The notes under the pieces are model-generated. The model was given only the letters and a program-made list of their open reading frames with translations, was not told the origin of the DNA and searched no databases. From Thermoanaerobaculia bacterium (GTDB taxonomy: Bacteria; Acidobacteriota; Thermoanaerobaculia; Multivoradales; JAHZIX01): a stretch of 64,000 nt of DNA. The DNA lies in NCBI GenBank assembly GCA_027069135.1, contig JALXFE010000492.1:1542-65541 (forward strand). Direction: 5' to 3'. Each line of letters starts with the position of its first letter. Positions within the stretch are counted from its first letter, which is position 1. A program made the translations under genes and the position numbers. Below, piece after piece: positions 14,378 through 56,494 of the stretch.

Positions 14378-14394
14378 CTATAGCTCCTTCCGGC

Positions 14395-14928: not shown

Positions 14929-14937
14929 CCTGATCTC

Positions 14938-15468: not shown

Positions 15469-15508
15469 ATTGAATCTCCTCCTCTCGTCATTGAGTTTCA
15501 GATAAGTC

Positions 15509-18500
15509 TTATGGAATCACGATCACCGGCAGGGTCGGCGCCGTCGCCGTCGCGGTGACGCCACCGGTCACGGCCACAGTGGGAGGGTCGGTGGTATCGA
15601 CGCTGCCACCGCCCCGATTGCCGTTATCCCGCAGGATGGTCGCCGGTGTCATCGACGCCGAAGCTCCCTGGAAAAGCTCTAAGGAACCGGCAAGCTCCTT
15701 AAGGTGGTACCCCTCCGGCCCCTGGTTGTCCATCATGTGAAGGTCGAGTGCGTTGGCGGCGCTATCCGCCTGGACCTCGACTTCGACGGAGTGTTTACGA
15801 TCCGCCGGCGTAAAGACGATGTCGTGCTGGGGAAAGATCTCCCGGCGCATGGTGAGATCGAGGTTACCCCCGGCGCGGACGTTGACCAGCACGGGATTGA
15901 ACGGTGATTGAGCCGCAAAGCCGACGTCGTCGGAGGCACTCCCCACCGTTCCGTCCACGTAGGTATTGTCCTCGAAGAGCACTGCGGCGGACGTCGTGCT
16001 CTCGGCCCGAATCTGCACCGAACCGTCCCAGGGCAGCCGGAAGGTGTTGTCGTGAACGTGGGCCTGGACGGCACCACCATTGAGCCCCAAGGTCAATTGC
16101 CCGAGGCCACCGGCTGCATGCATCACCTCGTCGAAAGTATTGAAGGAGACGATGGCGTCGTAGGTGCCCCCGGCGGGAACTAGTGCGACCCCTCCCTGGG
16201 GAAAATCGAAGGTGAGATTGCCCGGTGGGAGCTGCGCCGTGGTGTGATCGGTGATGGTGAAGGTGTTGCGAGAGATGACCGTGTCGATATCCCCCGTGTG
16301 CGGGAACCCTCCCCCCTCCTGGCCGACTACGGCGATGGATGCGGTGAGATTGTTGGTGAAGGTATTGCCCAGAGCCGCGTTGAGCTGCGCCGGATCCCCG
16401 ATCCTCACCACCATGTCGTGGCTGCCCCGGGCCTCGAAGCTCACCCCCCGGCCCCCGACGTTTCGGGTTCCACCGCTGGCAAACTCCTTATAGATATCCT
16501 CGAAGATATTCCGTTGCAGGGTAGCGTCCAGAGTCCCCGCCCCGGCGGGGGTGTAGATGTCTAAGCCCCGCGCACCGAGGCGCACCGTGCAATTGTCCAC
16601 CACCATGGTTCCGGTCAATCCCCGGATGCGGATCATGCCCTCGTCGGCGTCGTCACCCCGGCCGGGGACGTGGAAGCGGTTGGAGTTCTCAAACAAGCTG
16701 TCACGCAGCTCGAGGCCATTCCAGTTGGTGAAGTCGGTGCCGTCAGAAAAAAGAGCGCCTAAGATCGCGTGGTCGCTGAACCGGCGCATGGTCACGCTCT
16801 GCAGGCGCAGGCCGCCACCGACGTTCTCGCCGTGGATCCCGTCGCGGAAGCGCCGGGTCTGGACGGCATCGGCGGCGTCGTTGGCATCGGCGATGTCCTC
16901 AATGATCATGTTTTGGAAGCTCACCAATCCGCCGGTGTTGTCGAGAATGATGGCGTCGGAACCGGTGATGTCTTGGATCGTGCCCCCGGAGGCGTTCCCC
17001 CCGGCGGTCGTCGTGCCATCCCCGGTGACGACGAAGTCGCCGGCACCGGTGTCGGCGAGGCGAATACCCGGGTTGGCGCCGAACATGCCGTTGACGGCGA
17101 TGCTCTCGAAGGTCGCGTTGGCCGCGCCGAGGGTCGTTCCCCCTTGCATCGAAACACCGGTCCCGCCGGTAGCAGCGACGGTATTCCCCGCTCCCGTCAC
17201 TTCCACCGTCTGCGCCCCGCTGGCGTTGAAGCAGGTCCCCGCCGAGCAGGTTAGCCCCAGGCCCGCCAATCGGGTGACGCTGGTGGCCGCCAAGTTGGTG
17301 AGATCGATACAGGTGCTGTTGTTGTTGCACACGGCGCCGTCAATCGTGACGGTGGAGACGATGCCGTCCAGATCGAGCGCCGGGGCCCCGGTACCGGTGG
17401 TATCGATATTCACCAAGCCCGCCAAGGTCGTCGTATCGAGGGTGCCGCTGCCGGTGGCTGCGATCCCCGTAACACCGTTGGCAAAAATGTCCAGACTGTT
17501 GAAGGATACGGACGTATTGGCCACGTTGCCGGACATATTCACCCCACCTCCGGTGATCCGATTTGCGGCGCTGGTACCCAGGTCGACGGCGCCGGCGAAG
17601 GTCACGGTATTGGCGACGGTGGCCCCGGAGATGTTGATCCCGGTACTCACTCCCGTCCCCTGCAGGGTTGCCGCACCACTAAAACTCACCGTACCGCCGG
17701 CTCTCGCAGTGATATCCACCAGCCGGTTGGCCGTCGAGCTGCGAATGCCGTTACCGGTTAGGGTAGTCGCGATATTGGCGTTACCTCCGGCGACGTCGAA
17801 AGCATTCACCGTGCCCGCCGTCTGGTCGAGGCTCAGATCCGAGAAGGTGATGACGGCTGTGTTGTTGTCGATATCTATGGTCGCGCTGCTCGTGAGATCG
17901 GCGTTGGCAAAGAGCACGGTACTGGCGGCGCCGGCCATGCGCAACCCGCCGCCGCTGGCCGTAACCTGGCCGTCGAAGCGCACGGATCCACCAGCGCCCA
18001 AAGTCACGATATCCACGGCCAGACCCGTGTTGTCGGTGATGGTGCCGTTGTAGTCGAGGGTCGGCGAGCTGTTGTTGATATTGAAGCCCGTGCCGGTGGG
18101 GTTGGTGATGGTGGCGTTGGTGACGAAGTCAAAGGTACCTGAGGAGTCGTTGACGATATCGACTCCGGCATCGCCGCCGCTCAAAGTCGTCGTGCCGTTG
18201 AAATCGTAGTTTCCATCGGCGTTGTCGAATTGCAGGCCGGTACCGGCGGTGGCCGAGATCGTGCCGACCTCGAAGACCACGGTCCCGGCACTGTGACCCC
18301 CGCTGACGGAAACCGCCGGGGCGTTGTTGGCCTGGGTGATCGAGCCGCTGTAGGTCGAAGAAACCGTGCCCCCGGTGACGGAGAAGGTCGCGGCGGTGCT
18401 GTTGGTCAGGCCTCCCGCTGCCAAAGTGACCGTGCCGGCGACATCGACCAGGGACACCCCGGAGGTGGGACTATTCACCGACGAGACGGTTGCCAATTGG

Positions 18501-21500
18501 ACGCTGGCGCTCAGCGGGTCGAGGGCCAGAGCCGGCCCACCGATGGCGTCTGCCACTCCCGTCGCCACCGCCAGCAGGAACCCGGCGGTGGGAGGTGGCC
18601 CGCCGGTAGAGAGGCCGGCTCCGGAAGCGCTGAGCGCAGCGCCGGCGGTGGTGAAGATATTGAGGGTTCCAAAGCTGAGGTTTCCCAGGACGCGATTCGC
18701 CGGAGTCCCCAGGACCACGCCGCCGGTGCCGACCCTATTCGACACGATGCCGACATCGAGGTTGCCGCCGGCCACCAGATCGAAATCCGCATCCGCCGGG
18801 TCGCTGTCGAAAATCGCCCCGAGAATCCGCACGCCTTCGCCCGCGGAGCTGCCGAGCACCGCGTTGCCCGAAAAGCTGGTAACGAAGAAGGTGCCGGTTC
18901 CGCTGGTGTCTTCCATGAAGACCGCCGAGCCCCCGCCGTTGCCGGAGGTGATGCCGGCCACACCATCGAAGGCGACTTCCAGGTTCCCGGCTCCGGTCGT
19001 GCGGGCGTCGAAGCCGTTGCCCGTGGCGACGAGGCTCGACAGGGCGTTGACCGTCACCGTCGCCAACCCGGAGCTGGCGTGGTTGACGTCGATCCCTTCG
19101 CCGCTGGCGCCGCTGACTCGGCTGTTCTCAAACAGGACCCCGACGTCGTTGGCGCCGGAGGAGGTCACATCCAGACCGTTGCCGCCGGTGGCGGAAAGAT
19201 CCACGCCACGGATCTCGATGCCGGTGACGTTGCCGCCGGTGGCGTCCACGCTGATGGCGTTGCCGGCGGTGTGCCCGAGGCGGGCGTGGCTGTTGGCGGT
19301 CGGTGCCAACAAGACCTCCGGCGCCGGCTGGCCGTTGAGGCTTTGATTCACCTGGCATCCCTGGTGCTCACCGTGGAGCGTCACGTTGCTCGCCGCCAGA
19401 GTGATGCCGGCATTCATGCCGGCGGTGGTGCCGTCGCCGCGATAGACGCAGATCAGGTCGCCGGCCCCGTGGGCCGTTCCAGCGGCGGCCAGGGTGTCGA
19501 AGGGATCGTCGGAACGGCCGAAATTCGGCCCGTCCAAAGGATTGAGCGGCTCGCCCGCCGGATCGTTGTGGACGTACCACACCCGGAAGTTGATGACGGT
19601 GATATTTACGGTGCCGATGGCGCCGACCCCGTCGGCATCCTCGACGCCGTAGGTGAAGGAATCCGCCACATTGGACATCCCCCTCGGCGGCAGGTAGGTG
19701 AAGCGGCCGGAAGCGTCCATGGATACGGCCCCGCCGAGGGTCGAGGGCCCATCGAAGGTGGGCCCCGTGGCGTCCGCACCGACACTGACCACGGTGACCG
19801 CAGTACCTTCGGGATCGCTGTCGTTGTCGAGAACCGACGCCCCCGCCAGAGCCACCGTCGCGAGGCTCACCGCCGCCGGACCGCCGGTGCCGACCACCAA
19901 CTCCGTGTTGCCCACGGTGTCGTAGGCATCAATCCCGGCGGTGGGAGGAGCATTGACCGCCGTCACCGTCACTGTCTGCGCCAAAGTGTTGCTATTCGCG
20001 GCACCGTCGTTAGCGACACAGTTCAGCGTCCGGTTGGTCTCGTCCGGGTCCATACTGGAATTGTCGTAGGTGACACTGCGCAAGACCGCCTGGAAGTCCG
20101 CCACCGGAGCGCCCCCGACCGGGGCGATGGTCAAGGTCGGTGCCGCGAAGCTGATCTCCCCGGCGCCGATGGCGCCCGAGGGGCTCGCCGCCAGGACCTC
20201 CATGCCGACATCCAGCAGGTTGGTGATGGTCACCGTAGCCGAGGCCAGATTGGCGTTATCGACATCCGTTACGGTCACCCCGGGATCGACGACCACCGGG
20301 CCCATGCCCTCGATGAAAGCCGCCGGCCCACCACCCCCGGCGGTCTTCACCGGAGGATCGTTGACGGCGTTGACGGTGATCGCCGCCGTCTCTGTCGCCG
20401 TGCTGAAGGCCGTCACCCCGCCGTTGGTGGTCGCGTCCACCGCGGGGGTACCGCTCGACTCGCCGGAGGTCGTATCCCAAGCCCTAAAGGTGATGCCGGG
20501 ATCGACGAGACCGTTGAAATTGGCCGCCGGTACGAATCGGACGCGATCCATGGCCGTGGCCGAGAGCACCGTGGCGTTGGCGTCGCTCAAGGCTCCGAAG
20601 GCTGTCCAGGTCCCCCCACCGTCGGTGGAGAATTCCCAGACGCCGTTGGTGTTGTCCCGACCGGTCACCGCAAGGCCCTCGACGGCACCACCGTCCACAT
20701 CCGTGATGCGGTCCCCACCGGCGCTGGCGATGATGGCCGAGACCTGGTCTCCAGCCGGATTCGCGGTGTCCTCATCGATGGCTGTCAAAACCATCGCACC
20801 CAGGTTGTCGAGGACCGGGGCGTCGTTCTCCGCCGCCACGGTCACCGTCTGGGCCAGGGTGTTGCTGTCGTCGGTGCCGTCGTTGGCCACACAATTGAGC
20901 GTCCGATCCGTCTCATCCGGAGACTGACTGGTGTTGTCGTAAGTCACAGAGCGCAGCACCGCCTGGAAATCCGCCACCGGTGCGCCACCGACGGGAGCGA
21001 TGGTCAAAGTAGGTGCCGCGTAGTTGATATCCCCGGCACCGATCGCCCCGGACGCCGTCGCTGCCAAGGTCTCGAGACCTGCGTCCAGCAAATTGGAAAT
21101 GGTCACCGTCGCCGAGGCCAGGTTGGCGTTGTCGAGGTCCGTCACGGTCAACCCGGGATCCACCGCCACGGCGCCGCCATCCTCCGTGAAGGCCGCCGGT
21201 CCGCCCCCCCCGGCGGTCTTGACCGGAGGATCGTTGACGGCGTTGACGGTGATCGCTGCCGTCTCGATGGCCGTGCTGAAAGCCGTGATGCCGCCGTTGG
21301 TAGTGGTGTCCACCCCGGCGGCGCCGCTCAACTCTCCGGAGGTCGTATCCCAGGCACGAAAAGAGATGCCGGGATCCACGGTGCCATTGAAATTCGCGGC
21401 GGGTACGAAACGGATACGATCCGCCGCCGTGGCGGACAATACGGTAGCGCTGGCGCTGCTCAGGGCACCGAAGGGAGTCCAGACTCCCCCACCGTTGGTA

Positions 21501-22828
21501 GAGAATTCCCAGGTTCCGTCGGTGTTGTCCCGAGCTATCACGGCCAGACCCTCGACCGACCCGGCGTCGATATCCGTAATGCGGTCGCCACCGGCACTGG
21601 CGATGAGACCGGACACCAGATCGCCCATGGGATTCACGGCGTCCTCGTCGATGGCGGTGAAGACCATCGTGCCGGTGTTGTCCAGGACCGGTGCGTCGTT
21701 GACGGGTGCGACGGTCATGATCACCATCGCCATGTCCGTCAAGCCACCACCGGATTCCTCTACGGTGTAGCCAAAAGAGTCGGGACCGGCGAAATCCGCT
21801 GGCGGCGTGTAGAGAATCTGGTTGTTCGGGGCGGCGAGGGGATCGATGATCGCCGTGCCTCCAGCCACTGTCGGGCTGTCGACCTGGATGATGGTCAGCG
21901 TATCCCCCGGATCCGGATCCATATCGTTGGCCAGAACATCGATCATGGCACTCACCGAATCCTCGTCTACGGTAACGATATCGTCCATGGCGACGAGGGG
22001 TGAATTCTCCAGATCCACGATATCGAGGCGCATGCATAGATCCGCACCGTTGGCCGATGCGAAAGCGGCCACGATCTCCGCCGCGGCGTCGACAGGGAGG
22101 GAGTCCGGCACCAGGTCCATGGCGATGGGAGCGGAGCCCATCCATTCGCCGATCATGCCGTCCGGCACCGCGGCGTAGAGCAGGCCGGCGGTAAAGACGA
22201 GAAAGATCAGCGTCAGGACCAGGGTCGAGCGGCGACGGCGCAGGATCACCACAGCCGCGCCCGCGAGCACGAGAACCAAGAGCACAAATCCCACAGCGGA
22301 GAGGGTAGGAATCTCGACGATCGTCGCCACGGTGAGGAGGATCGGTGGTTCGGCGGAGCTACCCCCGGTCGTGATGAGGGCATCTTCTGAGCCGGCATTC
22401 GAGAGGGAACGGAAGGCCAGGCGAACCTCGTCCGCCGTGAGAAAGTCCAAGGGTAGGAACCCCTCGATGACGTCGCTGCCGAGCTCCCCGTTGTTCAAAC
22501 CCACCGGCCAGGGTGTCCCCGGTAAAGCGTCGGTGAACTCGAAATTCCCGCTGACCCCGTTGCACAAAGAAGATTCCGCGGCGACCACCATCGGCGGCGT
22601 GAGGCTCGAATCCACGGTCAGGGTCAGGAGGACCTCGTAGCCGGGATCGGCAACCCCCGGCAGACCGGCATCCGTGACCACGAAATCGCAGCCCGTGGCC
22701 GTCGAGTTGTCGGCGTCGAGCGCCATCTCGAAAAAATGAAGAACTTGAGCGTTGGCCGCCGGGCCTTGGGCGGCTAAAGCCAGCAAGCTAAGAAGCAGGA
22801 CACCGACGATGTTCTTCCAAGTGCACAT
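15509..22828 (-). CDS. Giant (~2440 aa) secreted/surface protein: N-terminal module, TM hairpin, tandem Ig/cadherin-like 'VNDAPV' repeat domains, long right-handed parallel beta-helix (PbH1-like) region
   Basis: Probable start at MCTWKNIVGVLLLSLLALAAQGPAANA (signal peptide). The six-frame ORF extends upstream to 23059 from a TTG. Two ~300-aa tandem repeats contain VNAVNDPPV / NDAPVLDN motifs. The C-terminal two-thirds are rich in G/T/N/S beta-helix-type repeats (e.g. NGIRSSTANRLVDITARAGGTVSFSGAATLQG). Confidence 0.85.
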   Translation of the reverse strand: MCTWKNIVGVLLLSLLALAAQGPAANAQVLHFFEMALDADNSTATGCDFVVTDAGLPGVADPGYEVLLTLTVDSSLTPPMVVAAESSLCNGVSGNFEFTDALPGTPWPVGLNNGELGSDVIEGFLPLDFLTADEVRLAFRSLSNAGSEDALITTGGSSAEPPILLTVATIVEIPTLSAVGFVLLVLVLAGAAVVILRRRRSTLVLTLIFLVFTAGLLYAAVPDGMIGEWMGSAPIAMDLVPDSLPVDAAAEIVAAFASANGADLCMRLDIVDLENSPLVAMDDIVTVDEDSVSAMIDVLANDMDPDPGDTLTIIQVDSPTVAGGTAIIDPLAAPNNQILYTPPADFAGPDSFGYTVEESGGGLTDMAMVIMTVAPVNDAPVLDNTGTMVFTAIDEDAVNPMGDLVSGLIASAGGDRITDIDAGSVEGLAVIARDNTDGTWEFSTNGGGVWTPFGALSSASATVLSATAADRIRFVPAANFNGTVDPGISFRAWDTTSGELSGAAGVDTTTNGGITAFSTAIETAAITVNAVNDPPVKTAGGGGPAAFTEDGGAVAVDPGLTVTDLDNANLASATVTISNLLDAGLETLAATASGAIGAGDINYAAPTLTIAPVGGAPVADFQAVLRSVTYDNTSQSPDETDRTLNCVANDGTDDSNTLAQTVTVAAENDAPVLDNLGAMVLTAIDEDTANPAGDQVSAIIASAGGDRITDVDGGAVEGLAVTGRDNTNGVWEFSTDGGGTWTAFGALSDANATVLSATAMDRVRFVPAANFNGLVDPGITFRAWDTTSGESSGTPAVDATTNGGVTAFSTATETAAITVNAVNDPPVKTAGGGGPAAFIEGMGPVVVDPGVTVTDVDNANLASATVTITNLLDVGMEVLAASPSGAIGAGEISFAAPTLTIAPVGGAPVADFQAVLRSVTYDNSSMDPDETNRTLNCVANDGAANSNTLAQTVTVTAVNAPPTAGIDAYDTVGNTELVVGTGGPAAVSLATVALAGASVLDNDSDPEGTAVTVVSVGADATGPTFDGPSTLGGAVSMDASGRFTYLPPRGMSNVADSFTYGVEDADGVGAIGTVNITVINFRVWYVHNDPAGEPLNPLDGPNFGRSDDPFDTLAAAGTAHGAGDLICVYRGDGTTAGMNAGITLAASNVTLHGEHQGCQVNQSLNGQPAPEVLLAPTANSHARLGHTAGNAISVDATGGNVTGIEIRGVDLSATGGNGLDVTSSGANDVGVLFENSRVSGASGEGIDVNHASSGLATVTVNALSSLVATGNGFDARTTGAGNLEVAFDGVAGITSGNGGGSAVFMEDTSGTGTFFVTSFSGNAVLGSSAGEGVRILGAIFDSDPADADFDLVAGGNLDVGIVSNRVGTGGVVLGTPANRVLGNLSFGTLNIFTTAGAALSASGAGLSTGGPPPTAGFLLAVATGVADAIGGPALALDPLSASVQLATVSSVNSPTSGVSLVDVAGTVTLAAGGLTNSTAATFSVTGGTVSSTYSGSITQANNAPAVSVSGGHSAGTVVFEVGTISATAGTGLQFDNADGNYDFNGTTTLSGGDAGVDIVNDSSGTFDFVTNATITNPTGTGFNINNSSPTLDYNGTITDNTGLAVDIVTLGAGGSVRFDGQVTASGGGLRMAGAASTVLFANADLTSSATIDIDNNTAVITFSDLSLDQTAGTVNAFDVAGGNANIATTLTGNGIRSSTANRLVDITARAGGTVSFSGAATLQGTGVSTGINISGATVANTVTFAGAVDLGTSAANRITGGGVNMSGNVANTSVSFNSLDIFANGVTGIAATGSGTLDTTTLAGLVNIDTTGTGAPALDLDGIVSTVTIDGAVCNNNSTCIDLTNLAATSVTRLAGLGLTCSAGTCFNASGAQTVEVTGAGNTVAATGGTGVSMQGGTTLGAANATFESIAVNGMFGANPGIRLADTGAGDFVVTGDGTTTAGGNASGGTIQDITGSDAIILDNTGGLVSFQNMIIEDIADANDAADAVQTRRFRDGIHGENVGGGLRLQSVTMRRFSDHAILGALFSDGTDFTNWNGLELRDSLFENSNRFHVPGRGDDADEGMIRIRGLTGTMVVDNCTVRLGARGLDIYTPAGAGTLDATLQRNIFEDIYKEFASGGTRNVGGRGVSFEARGSHDMVVRIGDPAQLNAALGNTFTNNLTASIAVVGQEGGGFPHTGDIDTVISRNTFTITDHTTAQLPPGNLTFDFPQGGVALVPAGGTYDAIVSFNTFDEVMHAAGGLGQLTLGLNGGAVQAHVHDNTFRLPWDGSVQIRAESTTSAAVLFEDNTYVDGTVGSASDDVGFAAQSPFNPVLVNVRAGGNLDLTMRREIFPQHDIVFTPADRKHSVEVEVQADSAANALDLHMMDNQGPEGYHLKELAGSLELFQGASASMTPATILRDNGNRGGGSVDTTDPPTVAVTGGVTATATAPTLPVIVIP
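19950..21720. repeat. Intragenic tandem duplication (~880 bp x 2, ~90% identical) inside the giant gene
   Basis: Near-identical DNA blocks (e.g. ...gtcaccgtctg[c/g]gcca[a/g]ggtgttgct... cgcctggaa[g/a]tccgccaccgg...) recur with a ~880-bp period. They are mirrored by the similar spurious plus-strand ORFs 20070..20927 and 21024..21770. Confidence 0.7.
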
Positions 22829-23126
22829 AGGGAATCCTTCAATTTGACGGGCCAAAGACAGGGGCTCGCGTGTCGGCCCACGATTTCCGCAAGCAAAGCT
22901 CACTCGAGGCAGTACGGAACTCTCACGATCCGTAGCCTCAAGGCCCTTCCGGAGATCCACCGACTCGGGTATATCCTTCTTCGGCGCCCACCCACACAAT
23001 TCGTTACAGCCTCCCCAGATTAGCATGATAGGAGTAGGGACAGCGGCAGCAAGACGCAAAAAGCCCGCCCCTAAGGAAACTTAGGGAACGAGCTCAAAGC
23101 ACTTGTGACAGGAAAGAGGAAATCGG

Positions 23127-24623
<1,497 letters not shown>

Positions 24624-24876
24624 AGTTCTCCCTCGTTGGGTCGATCAACAATGCTGGGCTCAGCGCCGCGTTGGCCTGCGTTGATGCAAGCTCCGGGCCG
24701 CCTCTTGGACAATAAAATCGTGTTGCATGGTACCCCGAAACCCGACTCCCGCCAAAGAGTGCCGTCCAGCTCCAGCCTCGGACACCGTTCTCTGTGCTAC
24801 GATTTTGGCCCTTTGTCTGGACCCAGAGGGAATTGTTGATAAGCCCGACTCAAACCCTGCCCCCCGAGCGGACCGG

Positions 24877-25896
24877 ATGGCCAACGTTAAACGTCTGAAG
24901 AAAAAGGTTCTCCGCCAAGCGGTTCAGGATAACCTCGACAGCCTTGCGGGCGCTCCACGGCGGCCTGCTCGCAGATCTCGCAGACTCGTCGTGCTTCGCT
25001 ACTCCCTGCTCATCGCCTTTCCCCTGGTCGCCTTGGGCACTTCCACCTACGTCCTCTCCACCGCCTCCGCACCTCAAGAAAAGCCGGTCATCGTGACCCA
25101 GATCGTCGAGGCTGCCTCGGAGGCCAGCACGGACATCCCCATCTTGCATCGCCCGGCCCCGGAACGGATCGAACCCGCAGTACTGAGCCTCGGTATTCGC
25201 AAGATCGTCCTGGATCCTGGACATGGTGGCCTGAACCTGGGGACGGTGGCTCCCGGAGGCCTGCAGGAAAAAGATCTCACTCTGGACGTCAGCCAACGCC
25301 TGGGGAGGCTCCTCGAGCGGGCCTCCTTCGAAGTGCTCTACACCCGTGACGATGACAGCAGAGTCGGCCTCGAAGAGCGCACCGAATTCGCCAAGAAAAA
25401 TCGGGCGGACATCTTCGTTTCCATCCACGTCAACTGGATCGAGGCCCACGAGGTCCGTGGCGTCGAAACTTTCTACCTGGGGCCCACCGACGACCCCTAC
25501 ATCAAGAACATAGCCGCTGCCGAGAATCGCGGCTCCGGATACTCTCTGGCAGATTTCCGCAGCCTCCTCGACGGGCTCTACAACGATGTCCGCCAAGATG
25601 AATCCCGGCGCCTCGCCGAGGCCATTCAAGGCAAGCTCTTCGATTCCCTACGTACCGTGACCCCGACGCTGCGAAATCGCGGTGTGAAGTCCGCTCCCTT
25701 TGTCGTCTTGGTATCGTCGGATATGCCGGCGGTGCTCGTCGAAGTCGCCTGTCTTTCCAACCGAGAAGAGGCTCGGCTTCTGGCCAAGCCCTATTACCGT
25801 CAATTCATCGCCCAGTCGCTCTTCGAGGGGATTCGCCGCTACGCCGACTCCCTGGCCCCCGACGAAGGTGCCCCTGGTCGCGAGGAGACCCCATGA
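24877..25896 (+). CDS. Membrane-anchored N-acetylmuramoyl-L-alanine amidase (Amidase_3 family)
   Basis: Start inferred at MANVKRLKK. N-terminal TM anchor LLIAFPLVALGTSTYVL. Amidase_3 signature VLDPGHGGLNLGT ... ADIFVSIHVNW ... GVETFYL. Confidence 0.8.
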   Translation: MANVKRLKKKVLRQAVQDNLDSLAGAPRRPARRSRRLVVLRYSLLIAFPLVALGTSTYVLSTASAPQEKPVIVTQIVEAASEASTDIPILHRPAPERIEPAVLSLGIRKIVLDPGHGGLNLGTVAPGGLQEKDLTLDVSQRLGRLLERASFEVLYTRDDDSRVGLEERTEFAKKNRADIFVSIHVNWIEAHEVRGVETFYLGPTDDPYIKNIAAAENRGSGYSLADFRSLLDGLYNDVRQDESRRLAEAIQGKLFDSLRTVTPTLRNRGVKSAPFVVLVSSDMPAVLVEVACLSNREEARLLAKPYYRQFIAQSLFEGIRRYADSLAPDEGAPGREETP

Positions 25897-26924
25897 GCCC
25901 CAAGCAAGAAGTCCTCAACGTCGGCATCGATCTCGGGACCTCCCGTTCCTCCATTTCAGCCTCCAACGGTCAGAAGCATCTGGTCGAGAGCTTTGTCGGC
26001 TGGCCACTGGATATGGTCGCCCGCAAGGTCCTCAAGAAAGATGTCCTGATCGGCAAGGAAGCTCTCGAGAACCGTCCCATGCTGGACCTTCACCGCCCCT
26101 TGGAACGGGGCCTGATCAAGGAAGGCTCGGACCGGGACGACGAGGCGGTGCGGGAGTTGCTGAAGCATCTCCTGGTCTTGGCCGGTGCGGGCCCGGAGGA
26201 GCGAGGCGATCTCAAGATTCGAGCTGTGGTAGGAGTTCCCGCCGAAGCGCTACGGGCCAACAAGAAAGTTCTGCGCAACGCCCTCAAGGGATTGGTGGAC
26301 AACACCATCATCGTCTCCGAGCCCTTCGCCGTCGCCTATGGCCTGGAGGAGCTCCTCCACGCCATGGTCATCGACAGCGGCGCCGGAACGACGGATTTCT
26401 GCGTCATGAACGGCCGCTATCCCACGGACGAGGACCAACGGACCCTGACCCAAGCCGGGGACTCCGTCGACGAACAACTCGCCACCATGGTCGGTGAGAA
26501 ATATCCGGACGCCAAATTCACCGTCCATATGGTGCGGGATTGGAAGGAGCAATACAGTTTCGTCGGCTCTCCCAAGAAAGCCGTGAAGGTCACGGTTCCT
26601 GTCGAAGGCAAGCCGACGGTTCTCGACATCACCGCCGAGATGCGCGCCGCCTGCGAAAGCCTGCTCGCCCCGATCTCGGAGACCATGCTCGATCTCATCA
26701 GCCGCGTAGAACCGGAGTACCAAGAGCGGGTCCGCCAGAACATCATCCTGTCCGGCGGCACGTCGCTGATCGCGAACCTTGGAACCACGCTGCAAAAGGA
26801 ATTGGATCAGGTCGGCGGCGGGCGGGTGCGGGTCGTCAAGGATCCCGTCTATGTGGGCGCCGACGGAGGATTGTCGCTGGCCACCGACGCACCGGAGTCG
26901 GATTGGGAAAAGCTGCCTGCCTAG
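25893..26924 (+). CDS. MamK-family bacterial actin (actin/MreB/Hsp70 ATPase fold)
   Basis: 343 aa. Phosphate-1 motif VGIDLGTSRS. Connect-1 VVGVPAEALRANKK. VSEPFAVAYGL. Phosphate-2 VIDSGAGTTDFCV. Adenosine motif IILSGGTSLI. Blocks (GRYPTDEDQRTLTQAGDSVDEQL, KEQYSFVGSP, EPEYQERVRQNI, VKDPVYVGADGGLSLA) align along the full length with magnetosome MamK as recalled. Start overlaps the amidase stop (ATGA). Confidence 0.8.
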   Translation: MSPKQEVLNVGIDLGTSRSSISASNGQKHLVESFVGWPLDMVARKVLKKDVLIGKEALENRPMLDLHRPLERGLIKEGSDRDDEAVRELLKHLLVLAGAGPEERGDLKIRAVVGVPAEALRANKKVLRNALKGLVDNTIIVSEPFAVAYGLEELLHAMVIDSGAGTTDFCVMNGRYPTDEDQRTLTQAGDSVDEQLATMVGEKYPDAKFTVHMVRDWKEQYSFVGSPKKAVKVTVPVEGKPTVLDITAEMRAACESLLAPISETMLDLISRVEPEYQERVRQNIILSGGTSLIANLGTTLQKELDQVGGGRVRVVKDPVYVGADGGLSLATDAPESDWEKLPA

Positions 26925-26977: not shown

Positions 26978-27054
26978 TGGTCGGGGCGAGAGGACTTGAA
27001 CCTCCGGCCTCACGCTCCCGAAGCGTGCGCTCTACCAGGCTGAGCTACGCCCCG
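26978..27054 (-). tRNA. tRNA-Pro (anticodon CGG)
   Basis: Minus-strand sequence CGGGGCGTAGCTCAGCCTGGTAGAGCGCACGCTTCGGGAGCGTGAGGCCGGAGGTTCAAGTCCTCTCGCCCCGACCA folds as a cloverleaf. 7-bp acceptor stem CGGGGCG/CGCCCCG. D-arm GCTC/GAGC. Anticodon stem CACGC/GCGTG with loop TTCGGGA. T-arm GGAGG-TTCAAGT-CCTCT. Encoded CCA. Confidence 0.9.
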
Positions 27055-27118: not shown

Positions 27119-28339
27119 CTATCTCAAAGGGAGTCCCACCGGTAGGAGCTGGACCTCCGGATCTGCGAACTTCGGGTTGGTCAGGAACTTCCGGTCCGTG
27201 AGGCTCCTCAGGAATTCCAGGAGATCTTGCCGCTCTTCCTCGGAGATCTCGAATCCACGGATCAGCTCGCTCTTGTGGCGGTTGGCGGAGCCGACGCCGG
27301 CGTTGGGACCATTGGGCAGGGTCCGGCCACCGGCGGCGTAGTGGTCCAGGACGTCTTCCAAGGTGGCGAGGCTGCCGTCGTGCATGTAGGGGGCGGTGAC
27401 CTCGATGTTGCGCAGGGTCGGTGCCTTGAAGCGTCCGAGGTCTCGCGGTTTCCCAGTCTTGCGGTAGAGGCCCTGGTCCGTGCTCGGATAGAACCCCTTG
27501 CCCATCAAGTTGTAGAGACCGGTGTTGTGGAAAGTGCCCTCCGGGGCGGCTTTGGTGTAGGTCCGTACCGGTCCGGAAAAGTTGAAGCCGCTGTGGCAGG
27601 CGGCGCAGGCGAGGCGCTCTGAAAAGAATAGGGTCATGCCCCGCTGGGCCGCCTCGGAGAGGGCGTCGGCATCGTTCCGGAGGACCCGCCGGTCGTAGGG
27701 CGAATCGCCGGAGAGGAGGGTCCGCTCGAAGGCCGAGATGGCGCGCGCCACGGTCGCGAGACGCACCGGGCTTTCGTCCCCGGGAAAGGCCTTTCGGAAG
27801 CGCTCCAGGCTCTGGGGATCCTGCCGAAAACGGTCCAAGACCTCCTCTTCCCGACCGGCGACCCCCATCTCTACCGGGTGCTCGTTGAGCATGGGGACAA
27901 GGGCCTGAGCCTCCAGGGTGGTCAACTCCGGATTCGCCCAGCCGAAGCTGGTGTTGTAGGCCACGTTGGTCAGCGACATGGTGCTACGGGGATGGAACTG
28001 GCCGGTGCCCCCGATGGCCCGAGCCCGGCCGTCGGTGAACGCGAGCTCCTGGCGATGGCAGAAACCACAGGAGGTGTGCCCCTCTCCGGAGAGTCGTTCG
28101 TCGTAGAAGAGGTGCCGGCCCAATTCCACCAACTCCGCGGAGGCGGCGGGGAACTCGGCGTCGACATCGGATAGATCGACCGGCGGGGGAAACCCCACCG
28201 GCAGATCACCGAAGAGAAAAGGGGCGCGGGCTGGTTCCACAGGCGGGGCGGAGCGGCATGCCGCGAGGGCCAAGGCGAGCCCCAGGGCGACGGTCGACAC
28301 CACCGACGAGGATGCAGCATGGCTGGCGAATAGGCGCAC
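27119..28339 (-). CDS. Di-heme cytochrome c peroxidase (CCP/MauG family)
   Basis: Two CxxCH heme motifs (SCGFCHRQ, CAACHSGFNF). Conserved CCP segment APYMHDGSLATLEDVLDHY. Signal peptide. Start probably GTG (VRLFASHAASS...). Confidence 0.85.
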   Translation of the reverse strand: MRLFASHAASSSVVSTVALGLALALAACRSAPPVEPARAPFLFGDLPVGFPPPVDLSDVDAEFPAASAELVELGRHLFYDERLSGEGHTSCGFCHRQELAFTDGRARAIGGTGQFHPRSTMSLTNVAYNTSFGWANPELTTLEAQALVPMLNEHPVEMGVAGREEEVLDRFRQDPQSLERFRKAFPGDESPVRLATVARAISAFERTLLSGDSPYDRRVLRNDADALSEAAQRGMTLFFSERLACAACHSGFNFSGPVRTYTKAAPEGTFHNTGLYNLMGKGFYPSTDQGLYRKTGKPRDLGRFKAPTLRNIEVTAPYMHDGSLATLEDVLDHYAAGGRTLPNGPNAGVGSANRHKSELIRGFEISEEERQDLLEFLRSLTDRKFLTNPKFADPEVQLLPVGLPLR

Positions 28340-28361
28340 CCTCTTCAACTCCTGGGCCGTT

Positions 28362-29057
28362 CTACCAGCCCTGTAGACCGGGACTGAGTTGGGCCGTCTG
28401 GGACGCCAGCTCGGCCCGACCTTCAAACCAGCTCTGGAACTCTTCGAGCTCCTGCGGGTCGACGCCGGCGGGATCTTTCTCCCGAGCCTCCAACCACGAT
28501 TTCATGGCCGCGAATAGCTCATCGGCTCGCGCTCGATCTGCCCCGAAGAGACTCATATAGGCCTTCCGAGCCTCTCCCAGGCGGTTCAGCCCGAGGTAAG
28601 CCTCAGCCCGGTACTCAATGGCTTCTGAGTAGTAGGGATTGAGCTCCAGAGCGCGGTCGTAGGCCACCAAGGCCTCGTCGTAACGCCCCAGACGACGCTT
28701 GGCATAGCCGAGGCTGCTGTGAGCCTCGAACATGGTGGGTTTGAGCTCGATGGCACGGGCGAATTTCTTCGCAGCCTTCTCAAATTGCTTCTCCACCTTG
28801 CCCAGGAGCTTCTCTTGCTCAGGACCACTGACGCCGGCCTCAGCCTTCTCTTCCAACTTCCAGGCTTTGTCCCGTAGACCAAGGCCATCGTTGTAGAGCT
28901 CTATGGCCTGCTCTTCCGGCGTCAGCTGCGGCGTCGTCGGATTCGGCGCCGACGGCGCAGACGAGCCACCGGCGGCGAAGACGACGCCGGGAACGAGTGC
29001 CAGGGCAGCTCCCAGGGCCAGGGTTGTTATCCGAAACCTTGCTCGCTTCATCATATT
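28362..29057 (-). CDS. Secreted TPR-repeat protein ending in C-terminal Trp, paralog 1
   Basis: Signal peptide MMKRARFRITTLALGAALALVPGVVFA. TPR-like repeats (EALVAYDRALELNPYYSEAIEYRAEAYLGLNRLGEARKAY). C-terminus ...SPGLQGW. Confidence 0.6.
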   Translation of the reverse strand, partial: NMMKRARFRITTLALGAALALVPGVVFAAGGSSAPSAPNPTTPQLTPEEQAIELYNDGLGLRDKAWKLEEKAEAGVSGPEQEKLLGKVEKQFEKAAKKFARAIELKPTMFEAHSSLGYAKRRLGRYDEALVAYDRALELNPYYSEAIEYRAEAYLGLNRLGEARKAYMSLFGADRARADELFAAMKSWLEAREKDPAGVDPQELEEFQSWFEGRAELASQTAQLSPGLQGW

Positions 29058-29146
29058 GGGCCTCCTTTTTAGCTTCGCCAAGTCTACCCTTTCTTCAGAC
29101 TTCGCAAGCCGGGGACCCATCGCTTTGCCCTCGCGAAGAAAGGGCC

Positions 29147-29830
29147 TTACCAGGGCCCCGAGTCTGAACGGATCTGCGCGGTTTGAGCCGCCAGCTCGGA
29201 TCTGCCCTCAAACCAGGCTGCAAAAGCTTCCAATTCCGCGCTCTCAAGACCCGAGGAATCTACCCTTCGAGCCTCGAGCCATTCCTCCATGGCCTCGAAG
29301 AGCTCGTCGGCCCGCGTGCGGTCACCGGCGAAGAGGAGCATGTAGGCCTTTTTGGCGTCGGCGATGCGATTCAAGCCGAGATAGGCCTCCGCCCGATACT
29401 CGATGGCTTCGGTGTAATACGGATTCAACGCCAGAGCTCGGTCATAGGCCACCAGGGCCTCCTCGTAGCGTCCGAGCCGCCGCAGGGAGTAGCCCAGACT
29501 GCTATGGGCCTGGAACATCTCAGGGTTCAATTTCACGGCGCGGCGGAAATTCTTGACCGCCTTTCCGAATTGCTTCTCCATCTTGCCCTGGAGCTTCCCG
29601 CGATCTCCTTCGTCGGTGCTCCCAGCCAGTTTTTCCTCCAGCTTCCATGCCTTGTCGCGGATCCGCAGGCCTTCGTTATAGAGCTGAGCCGCTTCCTCTC
29701 GAGGGGTCAGCGAAGCTACCGGCGGTGCCGAAGTCGAAGAACCACCGGACGCCTCGGTTTCTTGCGGGAACGCTGCGAAGAGAAACCCGAACAGGGTCAC
29801 GGCAGCTACTTTGGACATAAGCTCTTTCAT
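29147..29830 (-). CDS. Secreted TPR-repeat protein ending in C-terminal Trp, paralog 2
   Basis: ~65% identical to the 28362..29057 product over the full length. Same domain order. Signal peptide MKELMSKVAAVTLFGFLFAAFPQETEA. C-terminus ...RSDSGPW. Confidence 0.6.
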   Translation of the reverse strand: MKELMSKVAAVTLFGFLFAAFPQETEASGGSSTSAPPVASLTPREEAAQLYNEGLRIRDKAWKLEEKLAGSTDEGDRGKLQGKMEKQFGKAVKNFRRAVKLNPEMFQAHSSLGYSLRRLGRYEEALVAYDRALALNPYYTEAIEYRAEAYLGLNRIADAKKAYMLLFAGDRTRADELFEAMEEWLEARRVDSSGLESAELEAFAAWFEGRSELAAQTAQIRSDSGPW

Positions 29831-34878: not shown

Positions 34879-35334
34879 TTGACGCCGGCATCCAGAAGTG
34901 CTAAAAATTCCGCAGATGCTGATTTTTCCGCAGGTTTTTTCCTGGAGATCGAAATGAAGAAGGATGGATTCAGTCGTCGGGAGCGGGAGGTGATGGACAT
35001 CATCTACCGCCACGAACGGCTTACCGCGGCGGAGGTCATGGCCGAGATGCCTTCCCCGCCCAGCTACTCCTCGGTACGGTCCACCCTGAGTATCCTGGAG
35101 CAGAAAGGGCATCTACACCACGAGGCCGACGGCAACCGCTACGTCTATTTCCCCACGGTCCGCCGAGCCCAGGCGCGACGCACGGCCCTCGACCGCCTGG
35201 TCTCGACGTTCTTTGAGAATTCTCCCGCCCAGGTCGTCACAGCCTTGTTGGAGGAGAGAGGCTCGGAGCTCACCGATGCAGATCTTTCGGAGCTTTCGGG
35301 GCTCATCGACCGGGCCCGAGAGGAGGGACGCTGA
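34879..35334 (+). CDS. BlaI/MecI/CopY family transcriptional repressor
   Basis: Winged-helix N-terminus REREVMDIIYRHERLTAAEVMAEM ... YSSVRSTLSILEQKGHL. 151 aa. Stop overlaps the BlaR1-like start. Confidence 0.8.
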   Translation: MTPASRSAKNSADADFSAGFFLEIEMKKDGFSRREREVMDIIYRHERLTAAEVMAEMPSPPSYSSVRSTLSILEQKGHLHHEADGNRYVYFPTVRRAQARRTALDRLVSTFFENSPAQVVTALLEERGSELTDADLSELSGLIDRAREEGR

Positions 35335-37673
35335 TGCCTGATCTCCAGGAATTTCATTCGGTGTTGCCCCTGCTGGTGAAGCTCTCCCTCTGGTGTACCC
35401 TGCCCTTCGCCTTGAAGCCGCTCCTCGCGCGCTGGTCCGCGGCGCGACGCCACTTGCTCCTGACCCTGGTTCTTGCGGGCAGCCTAGCTCTACCGGCTCT
35501 GTGGAGCCTTGCCCCGTCCTGGTCGGCGCCGTCGTGGCTGCGGCTCCCGAGCGCTGAGGGGCGGACGGCTTCGGAGATGGAAGCAGCTCCACGGTTCCAG
35601 GAGCCCGAGTATTTTCTGCCCCTACCCCAGCCATTAGAGACCCGGGGCGCTGCCAGCGCTTTCCATAGGACAGTAGCCCATCCTCACCCTGCGACGGAGG
35701 TGTCACTCTCCGAGAGACGGCTTGCGAAAGCCGCCTCGGCCGGTAGCTCCGAGCCTGCCCCCCGGCCCTCCGCCGGCCCGATTCTCTTCCTCGTTTGGAT
35801 CCTCGGCCTGGTTTTCATGATGACGCGCCTCGTCCTCTCCATCCGCCGTGCGGCGGGGATCGTCGGGCGGGGTGGGGCCGTCGCCGACGCCACCGCTGGG
35901 GAGCTCCTGGAGGCCGGTCGGGAACGGCTGTCCTCGACGGTACGGCCGAGGCTTCTCGAAAGTTCTGAGACGACCGTACCCTTCGCCTGGGGTTCCGGCC
36001 GCGGTTCCATCGTCCTTCCGACGACCTGGCGCCGGTGGAGCCCCCAACGTTTGGAGGTCGTCGTCGTCCATGAGCTGGCTCATCTGCGCCGCAGAGACTC
36101 TCTCGCTCTTGCCGTCGGTCGGATAGCTACCGCACTTTGGTGGTTTCTCCCGATGGTCCACATTCTTGATGCCTGGGCTCGCCGGGAATGCGAGCAGGCC
36201 ACGGATGACGCCGTCCTGCTCTCCGGTTCCCGGGCCTCGGAATACGCCTATCACCTCATCGCCATCGGTCGTTCTTTGTCGCGGCCACTGCCCGCAGGAG
36301 TTTCTCTGATGATGTCCAACCGACCCAACCTCAAATCCCGTCTGCTCTCGATCCTCCGCCCGGACCAACCCCGCCAGGGCCTGACCCGCCGTATCGTGTG
36401 GGGAGCGAGTCTGCTTGCCCTCGGTTCCACGATAGCTCTGGCAGGAATTCGCTTTGCTCCTAAGGTCGAAGCTCAGGAGGTCTACGGCGAGGACCGTCAC
36501 GGCCATCGTCATGACCACGAAACCTACACCGATGAGGGTTCTGGCGGGCCCTGGGAGCAGGCCAACGCAGCCCACTCCCAGGGCCGCTACGACGAAGCCA
36601 TAGCCGGCTTCGAGAAAGCTGCCAAAGAAGGGATCCGCCCGGCGACTTCAACCTACAACGCCGCCTGCGGTTACGCCTTGACGGATCGGCCGGAGGAAGC
36701 CTTGGCCAACCTGGGCAAAGCGCTCCGCCTGGGCCTGGACGACCTCGAGCTACTGACCGAAGACTCGGACCTCGACCCCTTGCGCTCGGATCCACGCTTT
36801 CAAGCCCTGGTCGACAAAGCCTTCGCCGACGCCGGTGAGACGCGAGATCCCATGACCGACTACCGCTACCGCAGAACCCAGGAGACTCTCGAGCTTCTTC
36901 AGCAGGAGGGCTCTAGAGATTCCGAGGCTTGGGCCGAGGTCGGTACCGACCTCCTCACCAGTCGCCGACTGGATGATGCCGTCGTGGCCTTCTCCAATGC
37001 CGTCCGCTTCGACAGGGAGCCCCGGGGGAATACCCTCTACAACCTCGCCTGCGCCCACGCCCTCGCGGGCCAGAAGTCCCAGGCCTTGAATTCCCTCGAA
37101 AAGGCCATCCATGCCGGTTATTCGGATCCGCATCATATGCAGGAGGATTCCGATCTTCGATCCCTGCGCGGCGATCCGCGATTTCAGAAGCTGACGGAGC
37201 TGGCCCACGATCTCGATCTGAACCGCTTCCGGAAAACCTTGTGGGAAGAGCGGTCGACCGTATCGACGGCCATTCACTGGGTCTCCCAGGGCGATCGGAG
37301 CGAGTACTCTCCGGAGGTCTGGGCGCCCGCCATCAAGTTCTATCGAGGCTTTACCGCGAAAAATCCTGAGGTCGGCATCGGCTGGTTCAATCTCGGCTAC
37401 GCCCTTCACTACTCCGAACGCTTCGAGGAAGCCGGGGAAGCCTTCAACAAGGCCCGGGACCACGGGTTTCGACCATCGACATCGACTTACAACGTCGCCT
37501 GCGGCCTTTCTATGCTCAACCGGGTCGATGAGGCCATCGCCGCGCTCCAGAAGGCTATCGATCTAGGCTTCAACAACGGCTTCGAGCACGACTCGGATCT
37601 CGAGAACCTCAAATCCGATGATCGCTTTCGGGCTCTCGCCCGCAAACAGGAAATGCGGCACGAGCACGGTTGA
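35334..37673 (+). CDS. BlaR1-like M56 peptidase signal transducer with C-terminal TPR domain
   Basis: M56 HExxH motif VVHELAHLRRRD. Several N-terminal TM helices. C-terminal TPR repeats (YNAACGYALTDRPEEALANLGKAL; YNLACAHALAGQKSQALNSLEKAI; YNVACGLSMLNRVDEAIAALQKAI). Confidence 0.8.
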   Translation: MPDLQEFHSVLPLLVKLSLWCTLPFALKPLLARWSAARRHLLLTLVLAGSLALPALWSLAPSWSAPSWLRLPSAEGRTASEMEAAPRFQEPEYFLPLPQPLETRGAASAFHRTVAHPHPATEVSLSERRLAKAASAGSSEPAPRPSAGPILFLVWILGLVFMMTRLVLSIRRAAGIVGRGGAVADATAGELLEAGRERLSSTVRPRLLESSETTVPFAWGSGRGSIVLPTTWRRWSPQRLEVVVVHELAHLRRRDSLALAVGRIATALWWFLPMVHILDAWARRECEQATDDAVLLSGSRASEYAYHLIAIGRSLSRPLPAGVSLMMSNRPNLKSRLLSILRPDQPRQGLTRRIVWGASLLALGSTIALAGIRFAPKVEAQEVYGEDRHGHRHDHETYTDEGSGGPWEQANAAHSQGRYDEAIAGFEKAAKEGIRPATSTYNAACGYALTDRPEEALANLGKALRLGLDDLELLTEDSDLDPLRSDPRFQALVDKAFADAGETRDPMTDYRYRRTQETLELLQQEGSRDSEAWAEVGTDLLTSRRLDDAVVAFSNAVRFDREPRGNTLYNLACAHALAGQKSQALNSLEKAIHAGYSDPHHMQEDSDLRSLRGDPRFQKLTELAHDLDLNRFRKTLWEERSTVSTAIHWVSQGDRSEYSPEVWAPAIKFYRGFTAKNPEVGIGWFNLGYALHYSERFEEAGEAFNKARDHGFRPSTSTYNVACGLSMLNRVDEAIAALQKAIDLGFNNGFEHDSDLENLKSDDRFRALARKQEMRHEHG

Positions 37674-54704: not shown

Positions 54705-54839
54705 GATCCTAAAGCAGAATCTTAGCCCCTTCCCTCCCCTAGGGGCAAGAAGGACCTTCGGAGACCCACAACGGGCAACCCTCCCACGGGATGAATTCCG
54801 TGGGACGGGCGCTGGGCGCAGGAGGGAAGACTTGAGGGG

Positions 54840-56378: not shown

Positions 56379-56494
56379 CCAGCGGCGGAATGAAGAAGAA
56401 TCGGGCTAAATCAGTCACCGGGCATGGCGAAAGGCTGCTGGCGGGATCGAGCCCTTGGCCCCCGGCTCCGGGGATGGATGCCGCCCCAGGACGA

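Follow-up and report, generated by a model that had tools for sequence, protein, structure and literature searches.

A conserved gene pair encoding a MamK-like actin and a predicted membrane-anchored amidase in a Thermoanaerobaculia bacterium

To our knowledge, only a handful of bacterial actins have been assigned a role (MreB, FtsA, ParM and the Alps, and MamK), and the relatives of MamK that occur outside magnetotactic bacteria, BeeR and saltatorellin, are without known function. Here we describe an actin of the MamK type that has a fixed and interpretable partner. Its gene lies in a stretch of 64,000 nucleotides from a Thermoanaerobaculia bacterium (GenBank assembly GCA_027069135.1, contig JALXFE010000492.1, positions 1,542 to 65,541 of the forward strand), referred to below as the window, where it overlaps the gene of a peptidoglycan amidase of the division type, unusual only in its conserved, predicted cytoplasmic tail. 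The constant pairing of an actin with an apparently membrane-anchored amidase suggests an undescribed way of steering wall cleavage from inside the cell. The pair gives a testable hypothesis, that of a cytoplasmic polymer controlling a periplasmic hydrolase, and a starting point for functional work in the MamK/BeeR superfamily. The soil and sediment phyla concerned are abundant and poorly studied.

The closest characterized relative of the window actin is MamK (PDB 5LJV and 5JYG). Foldseek returned the MamK filament 5LJV as the best match of the AlphaFold2 model of the window actin (TM-score 0.92/0.97, root mean square deviation 1.4 Å, 41% identity); the alignment is free of gaps over most of its length, and the ATP-binding and catalytic residues are identical. 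Unlike MamK, the window actin scores below the NCBIfam MamK cutoff, falls in a clade of its own, is without a magnetosome gene context, and has a peptidoglycan amidase as its fixed partner, in place of MamJ, MamY, and the magnetosome membrane. BeeR, a three-stranded tubular actin of Verrucomicrobiota (PDB 8R2N), is 25 to 30% identical to MamK, has a disordered N-terminal extension of 30 to 50 residues, and has no known function (PMC11929497). It is likewise a MamK-related actin of non-magnetotactic bacteria, with a similar fold (TM-score 0.88, 30% identity to the window actin). However, the window actin reached 221.8 bits with the NCBIfam BeeR model (NF053558), for which the cutoff is 530, and is without the disordered extension, and a BeeR-clade gene is preceded not by an amidase gene but by the gene of a soluble 194-residue protein, beside type II secretion pseudopilin genes. 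Saltatorellin, a MamK-like actin of Saltatorellota, forms filaments in heterologous hosts, with a proposed role in cell-shape change (bioRxiv 10.1101/817700). Compared by description only, it resembles the window actin as a MamK-like actin outside magnetotactic bacteria and differs in its phylum and in that no amidase partner has been reported for it; none of the actin representatives in our searches matched the termini implied by the published primers. An amidase partner is mentioned neither in the BeeR paper nor in the saltatorellin paper, and no published description of the amidase-actin pair was found in full-text literature searches, which had most subscription journals outside their coverage.

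The organization of wall enzymes by an actin-family cytoskeleton is in itself a known kind of system, and what looks new here is the use of an amidase as the adaptor and of a MamK-type actin as the filament. Actins work with adaptors or client proteins in RodZ-MreB, FtsN-FtsA, MamJ/MamY-MamK, and MreBH-LytE, the last being a precedent for an actin homolog that directs a wall hydrolase. In MreB-RodZ, FtsA-FtsN, and MreBH-LytE, a cytoplasmic actin-family filament organizes periplasmic or extracellular wall enzymes, and in the first two a bitopic protein whose cytoplasmic region is short provides the link. The present locus differs in that the enzyme itself would be the adaptor, in that the actin is of the MamK type and not MreB or FtsA, and in that the two genes form a dedicated mobile cassette. 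With AmiA, AmiB, and AmiC (together with EnvC/NlpD and FtsEX), the window amidase shares the zinc-binding and catalytic residues and the autoinhibitory insertion in the catalytic domain, and in both cases a periplasmic amidase would be tied to a cytoplasmic nucleotide-hydrolyzing protein (FtsE there, the actin here). In contrast to these enzymes, it has no AMIN domain and no apparent twin-arginine translocation (Tat) or Sec leader, scores below all NCBIfam AmiA/B/C cutoffs, and is predicted to span the membrane itself with a conserved cytoplasmic tail, and its partner is an actin instead of the ABC-type FtsEX; the logic of FtsEX-EnvC-amidase resembles that of the amidase-actin pair more distantly. 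In LytH-ActH of Staphylococcus aureus and in CwlD-GerS, a membrane-anchored Amidase_3 enzyme depends on a dedicated partner whose gene lies close by, and these enzymes are structural neighbors of the window amidase (7TJ4 and 7RAG). Their partners, however, are membrane or lipoprotein activators acting outside the cytoplasm, and LytH and CwlD match only the part of the amidase domain that precedes the AmiA/B/C-type regulatory insertion.

Conservation of the amidase-actin pair

Both open reading frames (ORFs) named in a preliminary description of the window were present (Table 1), with the start codon of the actin gene overlapping the stop codon of the amidase gene, as described, and a Shine-Dalgarno-like element ahead of it. 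A longer amidase ORF is possible from position 24727. We placed the start at 24877, because conservation among orthologs (n = 76) begins exactly at this ATG and because separate gene calls on the 138-kb source scaffold gave the same overlapping products of 339 and 343 amino acids with the same amidase start. The genes on both sides are on the opposite strand, and the amidase-actin pair therefore constitutes a bicistronic unit. A simple consensus scan of the plus strand upstream of the pair found no sigma-70-like promoter.

A genome scan (one genome per species, pattern-seeded from the window actin, with the taxon labels of metagenome-assembled genomes [MAGs] as deposited) yielded at least 80 loci. 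At the listed loci, actin identity to the window actin was 59 to 78%, and the labels were Thermoanaerobaculia, Holophagales, Candidatus Binatia, "delta proteobacterium," Syntrophobacteraceae, and others. At all listed loci having upstream DNA (78/78), the gene directly upstream on the same strand encoded a homolog of the window amidase, an adjacency far beyond chance. Junctions were tight: among 79 pairs, 41 overlapped (19 by exactly 4 nt), 26 were separated by 0 to 20 nt, and 12 were wider apart, so that 67 of the 79 overlapped or lay no more than 20 nt apart, some of the larger overlaps being artefacts of automatic start choice. An AAGGA or GGAG element preceded the actin start in most of these pairs. 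No third conserved gene was found around the pair among the listed loci, at which the flanks varied from locus to locus; recurring neighbors, shadow ORFs aside, were sporadic (SDF symporter, SDR, hydrolase, and Ser/Thr kinase genes, each at 29 or fewer of the listed loci). When the look-up was started from the amidase side, two of two divergent homologs, on megabase contigs, were followed by an actin gene in otherwise unrelated contexts. Neither a tail-bearing amidase without the actin nor an actin of this clade without the amidase was seen among the listed loci and these two look-ups. The pair is a self-contained two-gene operon, a mobile cassette that moves between unrelated neighborhoods.

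The pairing, a survey of which the preliminary description had proposed, also extended to two more distant clades. In a cluster with 54% actin identity (P0124, Nitrospira-like), which includes a Nitrospira MAG protein that NCBI lists as "MamK family actin-like protein [Nitrospira sp.]," an overlapping Amidase_3 gene lies upstream of the actin gene, and in a cluster with 41% identity (P0161) an Amidase_3 gene is also found upstream. Other branches of the MamK superfamily (BeeR-like, P0126, P0127, and P0133) were without an amidase link, which thus marks out one particular sub-branch of the MamK/BeeR superfamily.

The actin and its relatives

MamK was the best-scoring actin-family model, sequence, and structure for the window actin. 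The score with the NCBIfam MamK subfamily model (NF040964) was 381.1 bits, 19 bits short of the curated cutoff of 400, compared with 57.3 and 44.3 bits for the MreB models PRK13927 and TIGR00904 (cutoffs of 293 and 365.75, respectively). Pfam returned only a weak MreB_Mbl match (62 bits), a sign of superfamily resemblance and no more. In a sequence search of the PDB, MamK was matched almost without gaps (E = 1.5e-79), ahead of BeeR (3.9e-41) and MreB (3.5e-11). The AlphaFold2 model had a mean predicted local distance difference test score (pLDDT) of 92.3 and a predicted TM-score of 0.89, with the first beta-strand starting at residue 7, and Foldseek ranked MamK, BeeR, and eukaryotic actins as its nearest structures, with MreB absent from the best 50 matches. 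The nucleotide-binding and catalytic residues D13, G15, T16, E143, D161, G163, G165, D168, G288, and G289 were invariant in 31 family members and the named MamKs. All four sequence blocks that the preliminary description had quoted as specific to the MamK family were present and aligned without gaps to MamK of AMB-1, and the best model, sequence, and fold matches were to MamK and not to MreB, ParM, or Alp, in line with its statement that the protein does not look like generic MreB, ParM, or FtsA.

Membership in the MamK family, as that description had it, holds in the broad sense only. When NF040964 was calibrated, authentic MamKs scored 472 to 549 bits, about 90 bits or more above the window actin, and non-magnetosome relatives straddled the cutoff (P0124, 425 bits; P0133, 412 bits; P0121, 392.7 bits; P0126, 389 bits; P0161, 257 bits). 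Because of these scores, the window actin is best regarded as belonging to the MamK family broadly defined and as not being an ortholog of magnetosome MamK. Since the cutoff straddles non-magnetosome relatives, surveys that use mamK to detect magnetotactic bacteria could give false positives, amidase-linked genes without a role in magnetosomes among them.

A word-indexed protein search with the window actin returned 4926 relatives at E ≤ 1e-10. The best 120 of these were 69 to 92% identical to it (with the exception of one artefactual entry, P0003) and nearly all 338 to 354 amino acids long; the taxon-labelled members came from Thermoanaerobaculia or Acidobacteriota MAGs, and the database name, where one was given, was "rod shape-determining protein." In P0003 (455 amino acids), roughly 100 residues of the actin domain are duplicated internally, and this protein is probably an assembly artefact. 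An exhaustive search of representatives clustered at 50% identity gave 189 at E ≤ 1e-30, among which the family collapsed to essentially one full-length representative (P0121), followed by P0124 (54% identity) and then by proteins of 47% identity or less. In a neighbor-joining tree of the window actin, family members, representatives, named MamKs, BeeR, and MreB (336 columns, 100 bootstraps), the window actin fell into a clade with a bootstrap value of 99, mostly of Thermoanaerobaculia, outside the group that held all named MamKs; BeeR-like proteins were likewise grouped at 99. The placement that the preliminary description had called for thus yielded a clade of its own, and all deeper nodes, on which the position of this clade relative to MamK and BeeR depends, had bootstrap values below 30. 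A possibility is that magnetosome MamK and BeeR arose by recruitment from an amidase-linked housekeeping lineage and not from MreB.

These data bear on two readings in which the gene would be a stray. With its best hidden Markov model, sequence, and structure matches all to MamK, the window actin could be a magnetosome MamK that was displaced from a magnetosome island or is a remnant of one, which we consider highly improbable. It scores 381 bits where authentic MamKs reach 472 to 549, and its clade stands on its own (bootstrap value of 99, with deeper nodes below 30). This clade is large, being present in at least 80 species-level genomes (Acidobacteriota, Binatia, and other MAGs) from lineages in which magnetotaxis is not known, with the amidase gene adjacent wherever upstream DNA was present. 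Mam-type genes were never among its neighbors in the flanks of the 80 listed loci, and, in agreement with the preliminary description, the approximately 40 scanned ORFs of the window contained no magnetosome-type domain (CDF, LemA, MamE-type, or other Mam-like). It is just as hard to believe that the gene encodes a plasmid or phage DNA-segregation actin (of the ParM, AlfA, or Alp type) that by chance stands beside a lysis-type amidase. Amidase_3 enzymes frequently serve as phage endolysins, and mobile elements often carry actin-like segregation proteins. Against such an origin, tblastn at E ≤ 1e-10 found no relative of the actin in 72,556 plasmids or 50,697 phage records, and the pair in the window is surrounded by chromosomal housekeeping genes, with no ParR-like adaptor gene or centromere repeats noted; the amidase, moreover, carries a regulatory insertion of the cell-division type, which is absent from the compact CwlV-, CwlD-, and LytH-type domains.

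The window actin most likely polymerizes in an ATP-dependent manner, as MamK does; we infer this from its 41% identity to MamK and from a model that is closest to filament-state MamK. Glu278 occupies the position of MamK A278, the site of the non-polymerizing A278D mutant. It was rejected as an argument against filaments, since Glu was the commonest residue at this position in the named MamK set (8/14). The actin is also more constrained (approximately 70 to 92% identity) than the amidase (approximately 45 to 65%), as expected of a polymer.

Several other relatives of the actin were seen in contexts of their own. A BeeR-clade actin (P0246, 413 amino acids; L083:1-7242 and L084:2-6181) is the one preceded by the 194-amino-acid protein mentioned above, which is coiled-coil-like and has no Pfam match and no transmembrane segment. 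Next to these two genes, in divergent orientation, is a type II secretion pseudopilin operon (T2SSG, three N_methyl proteins, T2SSK, and a secretin), and this context is a possible lead to the function of BeeR. P0126, 47% identical to the window actin (L085:1-4507, gene at 1890-2936), lies within a chemotaxis cluster in the order CheA/CheW, CheC, and CheD genes, actin, an uncharacterized 291-amino-acid protein, and another CheC; this cluster is another non-magnetosome context for the MamK superfamily. The P0127 and P0133 actins have small soluble neighbors, and P0133, whose cluster includes a Gemmatimonadota MAG protein, was found in no Mam context. A MamK-like domain that is 40 to 46% identical to the window actin also forms the C-terminal part of proteins of 500 to 1232 amino acids (P0130, P0135, P0137, P0138, and P0140, with P0142 to P0144, P0146, P0148 to P0151, and P0153 as further members of the same clade); in the three that were inspected, the N-terminal extension was long, acidic, and repeat-rich.

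The amidase and its N-terminal segments

The assignment of the upstream gene to Amidase_3 was borne out by Pfam (PF01520), with 171.7 bits over residues 110 to 320 at a gathering threshold of 27. H116, E131, H184, and E289, the spacing of which corresponds to that of the zinc ligands and catalytic Glu of AmiC, were invariant in 51 homologs, so that the active site is intact, as it is in the actin. The best PDB sequence matches were AmiB of Bartonella (3NE8), AmiA of Escherichia coli (8C2O), and AmiC (4BIN). The alignments to 3NE8 and 8C2O extend across the regulatory insertion, inside which E216-N217 is invariant, whereas matches to the compact CwlV-, CwlD-, and LytH-type domains are limited to the N-terminal part of the amidase domain. 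AlphaFold2 modeled helices at residues 207 to 216 and 224 to 231 (region 207 to 231), with pLDDT values above 90 for most of the catalytic domain, and Foldseek matched the model best to AmiA (TMt of 0.84), with AmiA, AmiC, and AmiB as the top matches. Because of the alignments through the insertion, the invariant E216-N217, the modeled helices, and the AmiA-like fold, the amidase is assigned, on sequence and model, to the autoinhibited, activator-dependent cell-separation type with a predicted regulatory helix. It nevertheless remained below the NCBIfam cutoffs for AmiA (106 versus 400 bits), AmiC (96 versus 700 bits), and AmiB (90 versus 532 bits), and no AMIN domain was found in it by Pfam scan.

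Upstream of the catalytic domain, the protein falls into segments that differ strongly in conservation. Mean pairwise identity was 45% in the N-terminal tail, 29% in the basic patch, 28% in the transmembrane segment, 21% in the linker, and 57% in the catalytic domain. The tail has the family consensus DRLKRxMLRxAVxENLxxIxG, in which R6, K8, V16, N19, and G25 were at least 90% conserved in 51 homologs. A loose pattern for this motif matched 113 of 120 homologs, compared with 5% of shuffles, and the 7 misses were conservative variants. Its core, L-x-x-A-V-x-x-N-[LVR], is kept in the partner amidases of all three clades, as LLRAVGEDNR in the Nitrospira-like clade and LDDAVRHNL in the P0161 clade, whereas the region from the transmembrane segment to the catalytic domain differs entirely between the amidases of these clades. 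AlphaFold2 predicted helices at residues 2 to 23 and 35 to 62, followed by disorder from 63 to 108; in this linker, pLDDT was approximately 45 to 58, without secondary structure. The linker is 40 to 96 residues long (median, 47). The hydrophobic segment comprises approximately 20 to 25 residues (median Kyte-Doolittle value of the best 19-mer, 1.82), and the median net charge was +6 before it and 0 after it. The hydrophobic moment of the tail (μH of 0.43) was reached by 15% of shuffles; this amphipathicity was not significant, and recognition of a protein is therefore favored over generic membrane binding.

E. coli AmiA and AmiC are Tat substrates, and the N terminus of the window amidase could accordingly be a cleavable Tat or Sec signal peptide that leaves a mature enzyme soluble in the periplasm, beyond the reach of a cytoplasmic filament. 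The protein does have pairs of arginines ahead of the hydrophobic segment, which is followed by an ASA-PQ stretch. In the alignment, however, neither a twin-arginine motif beside the hydrophobic region nor an AxA site was conserved across orthologs; the 25 residues before the basic patch are strongly conserved, which would be unexpected for the n-region of a signal peptide; and the hydrophobic segment is long and strongly hydrophobic, within the modeled helix of residues 35 to 62. We judge a signal peptide unlikely, at a probability well below one in ten. The charge asymmetry, the hydrophobicity, the conservation of the tail, and the lack of conserved Tat and AxA motifs argue for an N-in signal-anchor with a functional cytoplasmic peptide and not for a cleaved leader. 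The amidase is thus predicted, from its sequence and model, to be a type II (N-in) bitopic membrane protein, and for the N-terminal transmembrane anchor of the preliminary description, a conserved cytoplasmic tail followed by a signal-anchor is the better description.

Proposed mechanism and surrounding genes

The reading that we favor, with a confidence only somewhat above even, is that filaments of the actin hold the tail of the amidase and thereby position or gate the enzyme in the periplasm. The filaments would form on the cytoplasmic face of the membrane and bind the cytoplasmic tail, which in turn would tether them to the membrane. The tail would be the handle by which a filament could cluster, position, move, or gate the periplasmic amidase, and the linker of approximately 45 residues would let the catalytic domain reach the peptidoglycan. 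Cleavage would then be confined to the site of the filament, most plausibly for septal splitting and the separation of daughter cells, with a LytM-type activator in the periplasm perhaps acting alongside the filament. Tail and actin together would replace the AMIN domain or the Tat targeting of classical AmiA/B/C. The tail argues for this arrangement, in that its conservation (45%) comes close to that of the catalytic domain (57%) and far exceeds that of the transmembrane segment (28%) and linker (21%) between them. The cytoskeleton-guided wall remodeling that the preliminary description had put forward is strengthened for the same reason, namely, that the cytoplasmic tail is conserved, and would still be an interpretation of the gene pair.

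Some points weigh against a filament-held amidase. Linkage in an operon may mean no more than shared regulation. The autoinhibitory helix, which the amidase has kept, implies an activator in the periplasm (a LytM factor, for instance), and control might be wholly periplasmic. The partners of the actins in the BeeR-like, P0126, P0127, and P0133 branches are soluble and without a transmembrane segment; a membrane-adaptor partner as a general rule of the MamK superfamily was rejected on this account. The 76 available amidase-actin pairs were too alike for coupling analysis.

It is therefore also conceivable, at perhaps one chance in four, that the two genes are co-expressed and their proteins make no contact. 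The actin would then be a general element of morphogenesis or of the divisome, perhaps in place of MreB or FtsA or in addition to them. The amidase would serve cell separation in the ordinary way, and its tail would bind another partner (a divisome protein, a protease, or a regulator). The operon link and the tight junction prove co-expression only, and the retained helix points to a periplasmic activator; databases call the actin a rod shape-determining protein, and no MreB was found in the scanned ORFs of the window. Yet MreB models score very low on the actin (57 bits versus a cutoff of 293), the pair is the only conserved unit and moves as a cassette between unrelated neighborhoods, the tail motif accompanies the actin in three clades down to 41% actin identity, and among the listed loci neither partner was seen without the other.

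We also put forward, tentatively and as somewhat short of probable, a stronger version of the filament-held amidase. A MamK-type filament would have a direct hold on the tail of the amidase, a membrane-spanning and autoinhibited enzyme, and would dictate where, and possibly when, the wall is cut. The pair would then be an undescribed cytoskeletal system, an actin-based alternative to AMIN targeting and FtsEX-EnvC control, carried by a mobile two-gene module that is conserved in Acidobacteriota (Thermoanaerobaculia and Holophagales), Binatia, a Nitrospira-like lineage, and others.

Table 1. Features of the amidase-actin locus and its immediate flanks (positions in the window)
Feature	Coordinates	Strand	Basis or remark
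Bitopic (predicted) AmiA/B/C-type N-acetylmuramoyl-L-alanine amidase gene	24877..25896	+	339 amino acids; ORF, Pfam, PDB, and Foldseek matches
Conserved N-terminal tail, predicted cytoplasmic, residues 1-25, MANVKRLKKKVLRQAVQDNLDSLAG; proposed actin docking site	24877..24951	+	Conservation, AlphaFold2
Basic patch (residues 26-36) and hydrophobic signal-anchor helix (approximately residues 37-62), predicted	24952..25062	+	Charge, hydrophobicity, AlphaFold2
Hypervariable Ala/Pro-rich linker, predicted periplasmic, residues 63-108	25063..25200	+	Identity, AlphaFold2
Amidase_3 catalytic domain (residues 109-326), including AmiA/B/C-type regulatory insertion (approximately residues 204-245)	25201..25854	+	Alignments, AlphaFold2
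Shine-Dalgarno-like GAGGAG, 5 nt before actin start, within 3' end of amidase gene	25882..25887	+	Sequence
ATGA, actin start codon overlapping amidase stop codon (TGA)	25893..25896	+	Sequence
MamK-like actin-family ATPase gene, amidase-linked clade	25893..26924	+	343 amino acids; NCBIfam, AlphaFold2, Foldseek, tree
POT transporter gene	23127..24623	-	Flank
tRNA-Pro(CGG)	26978..27054	-	Flank
Di-heme cytochrome c peroxidase gene	27119..28426	-	Flank

The three flanking genes had been named correctly in the preliminary description and are located in Table 1. So had a second Amidase_3 gene in the window (52857-54704, minus strand), the 615-amino-acid product of which combines LysM with an Amidase_3 domain that has a large insertion; it adjoins genes for a T2SSE-type secretion ATPase (54840-56378) and LexA (56495-57181), the region 52857-57181 being on the minus strand. 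A rodZ-like gene, also listed there, was not recovered, as the scanned ORFs gave no HTH_25 or DUF4115 match.

Several further features were noted in the window. At 34879-37673 (plus strand), the gene of a BlaI-type repressor (Penicillinase_R) overlaps that of a 779-amino-acid fusion of a BlaR1 M56 peptidase with TPR repeats, a BlaI/BlaR1-type pair that is a cell-envelope stress sensor. A giant repeat-rich protein of 2516 amino acids is encoded at 15509-23059 (minus strand; region 13859-23059) and is followed by three ORFs of approximately 175 amino acids on the same strand (13859-14377, 14395-14928, and 14938-15468), one of which was scanned and contains a phage tail collar domain. The segment 92-5249 (plus strand) encodes a 1042-amino-acid TPR-CHAT protein, a small ORF, a sigma-70 region 2 protein, and a zf-HC2 putative anti-sigma factor, and another zf-HC2 protein is encoded at 51508-52290 (minus strand). 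Just downstream of the cytochrome c peroxidase gene, at 28362-29830 (minus strand), lie two tandem genes for paralogous TPR proteins of approximately 230 to 250 amino acids, both of which, judging from their translations, have an apparent N-terminal hydrophobic leader.

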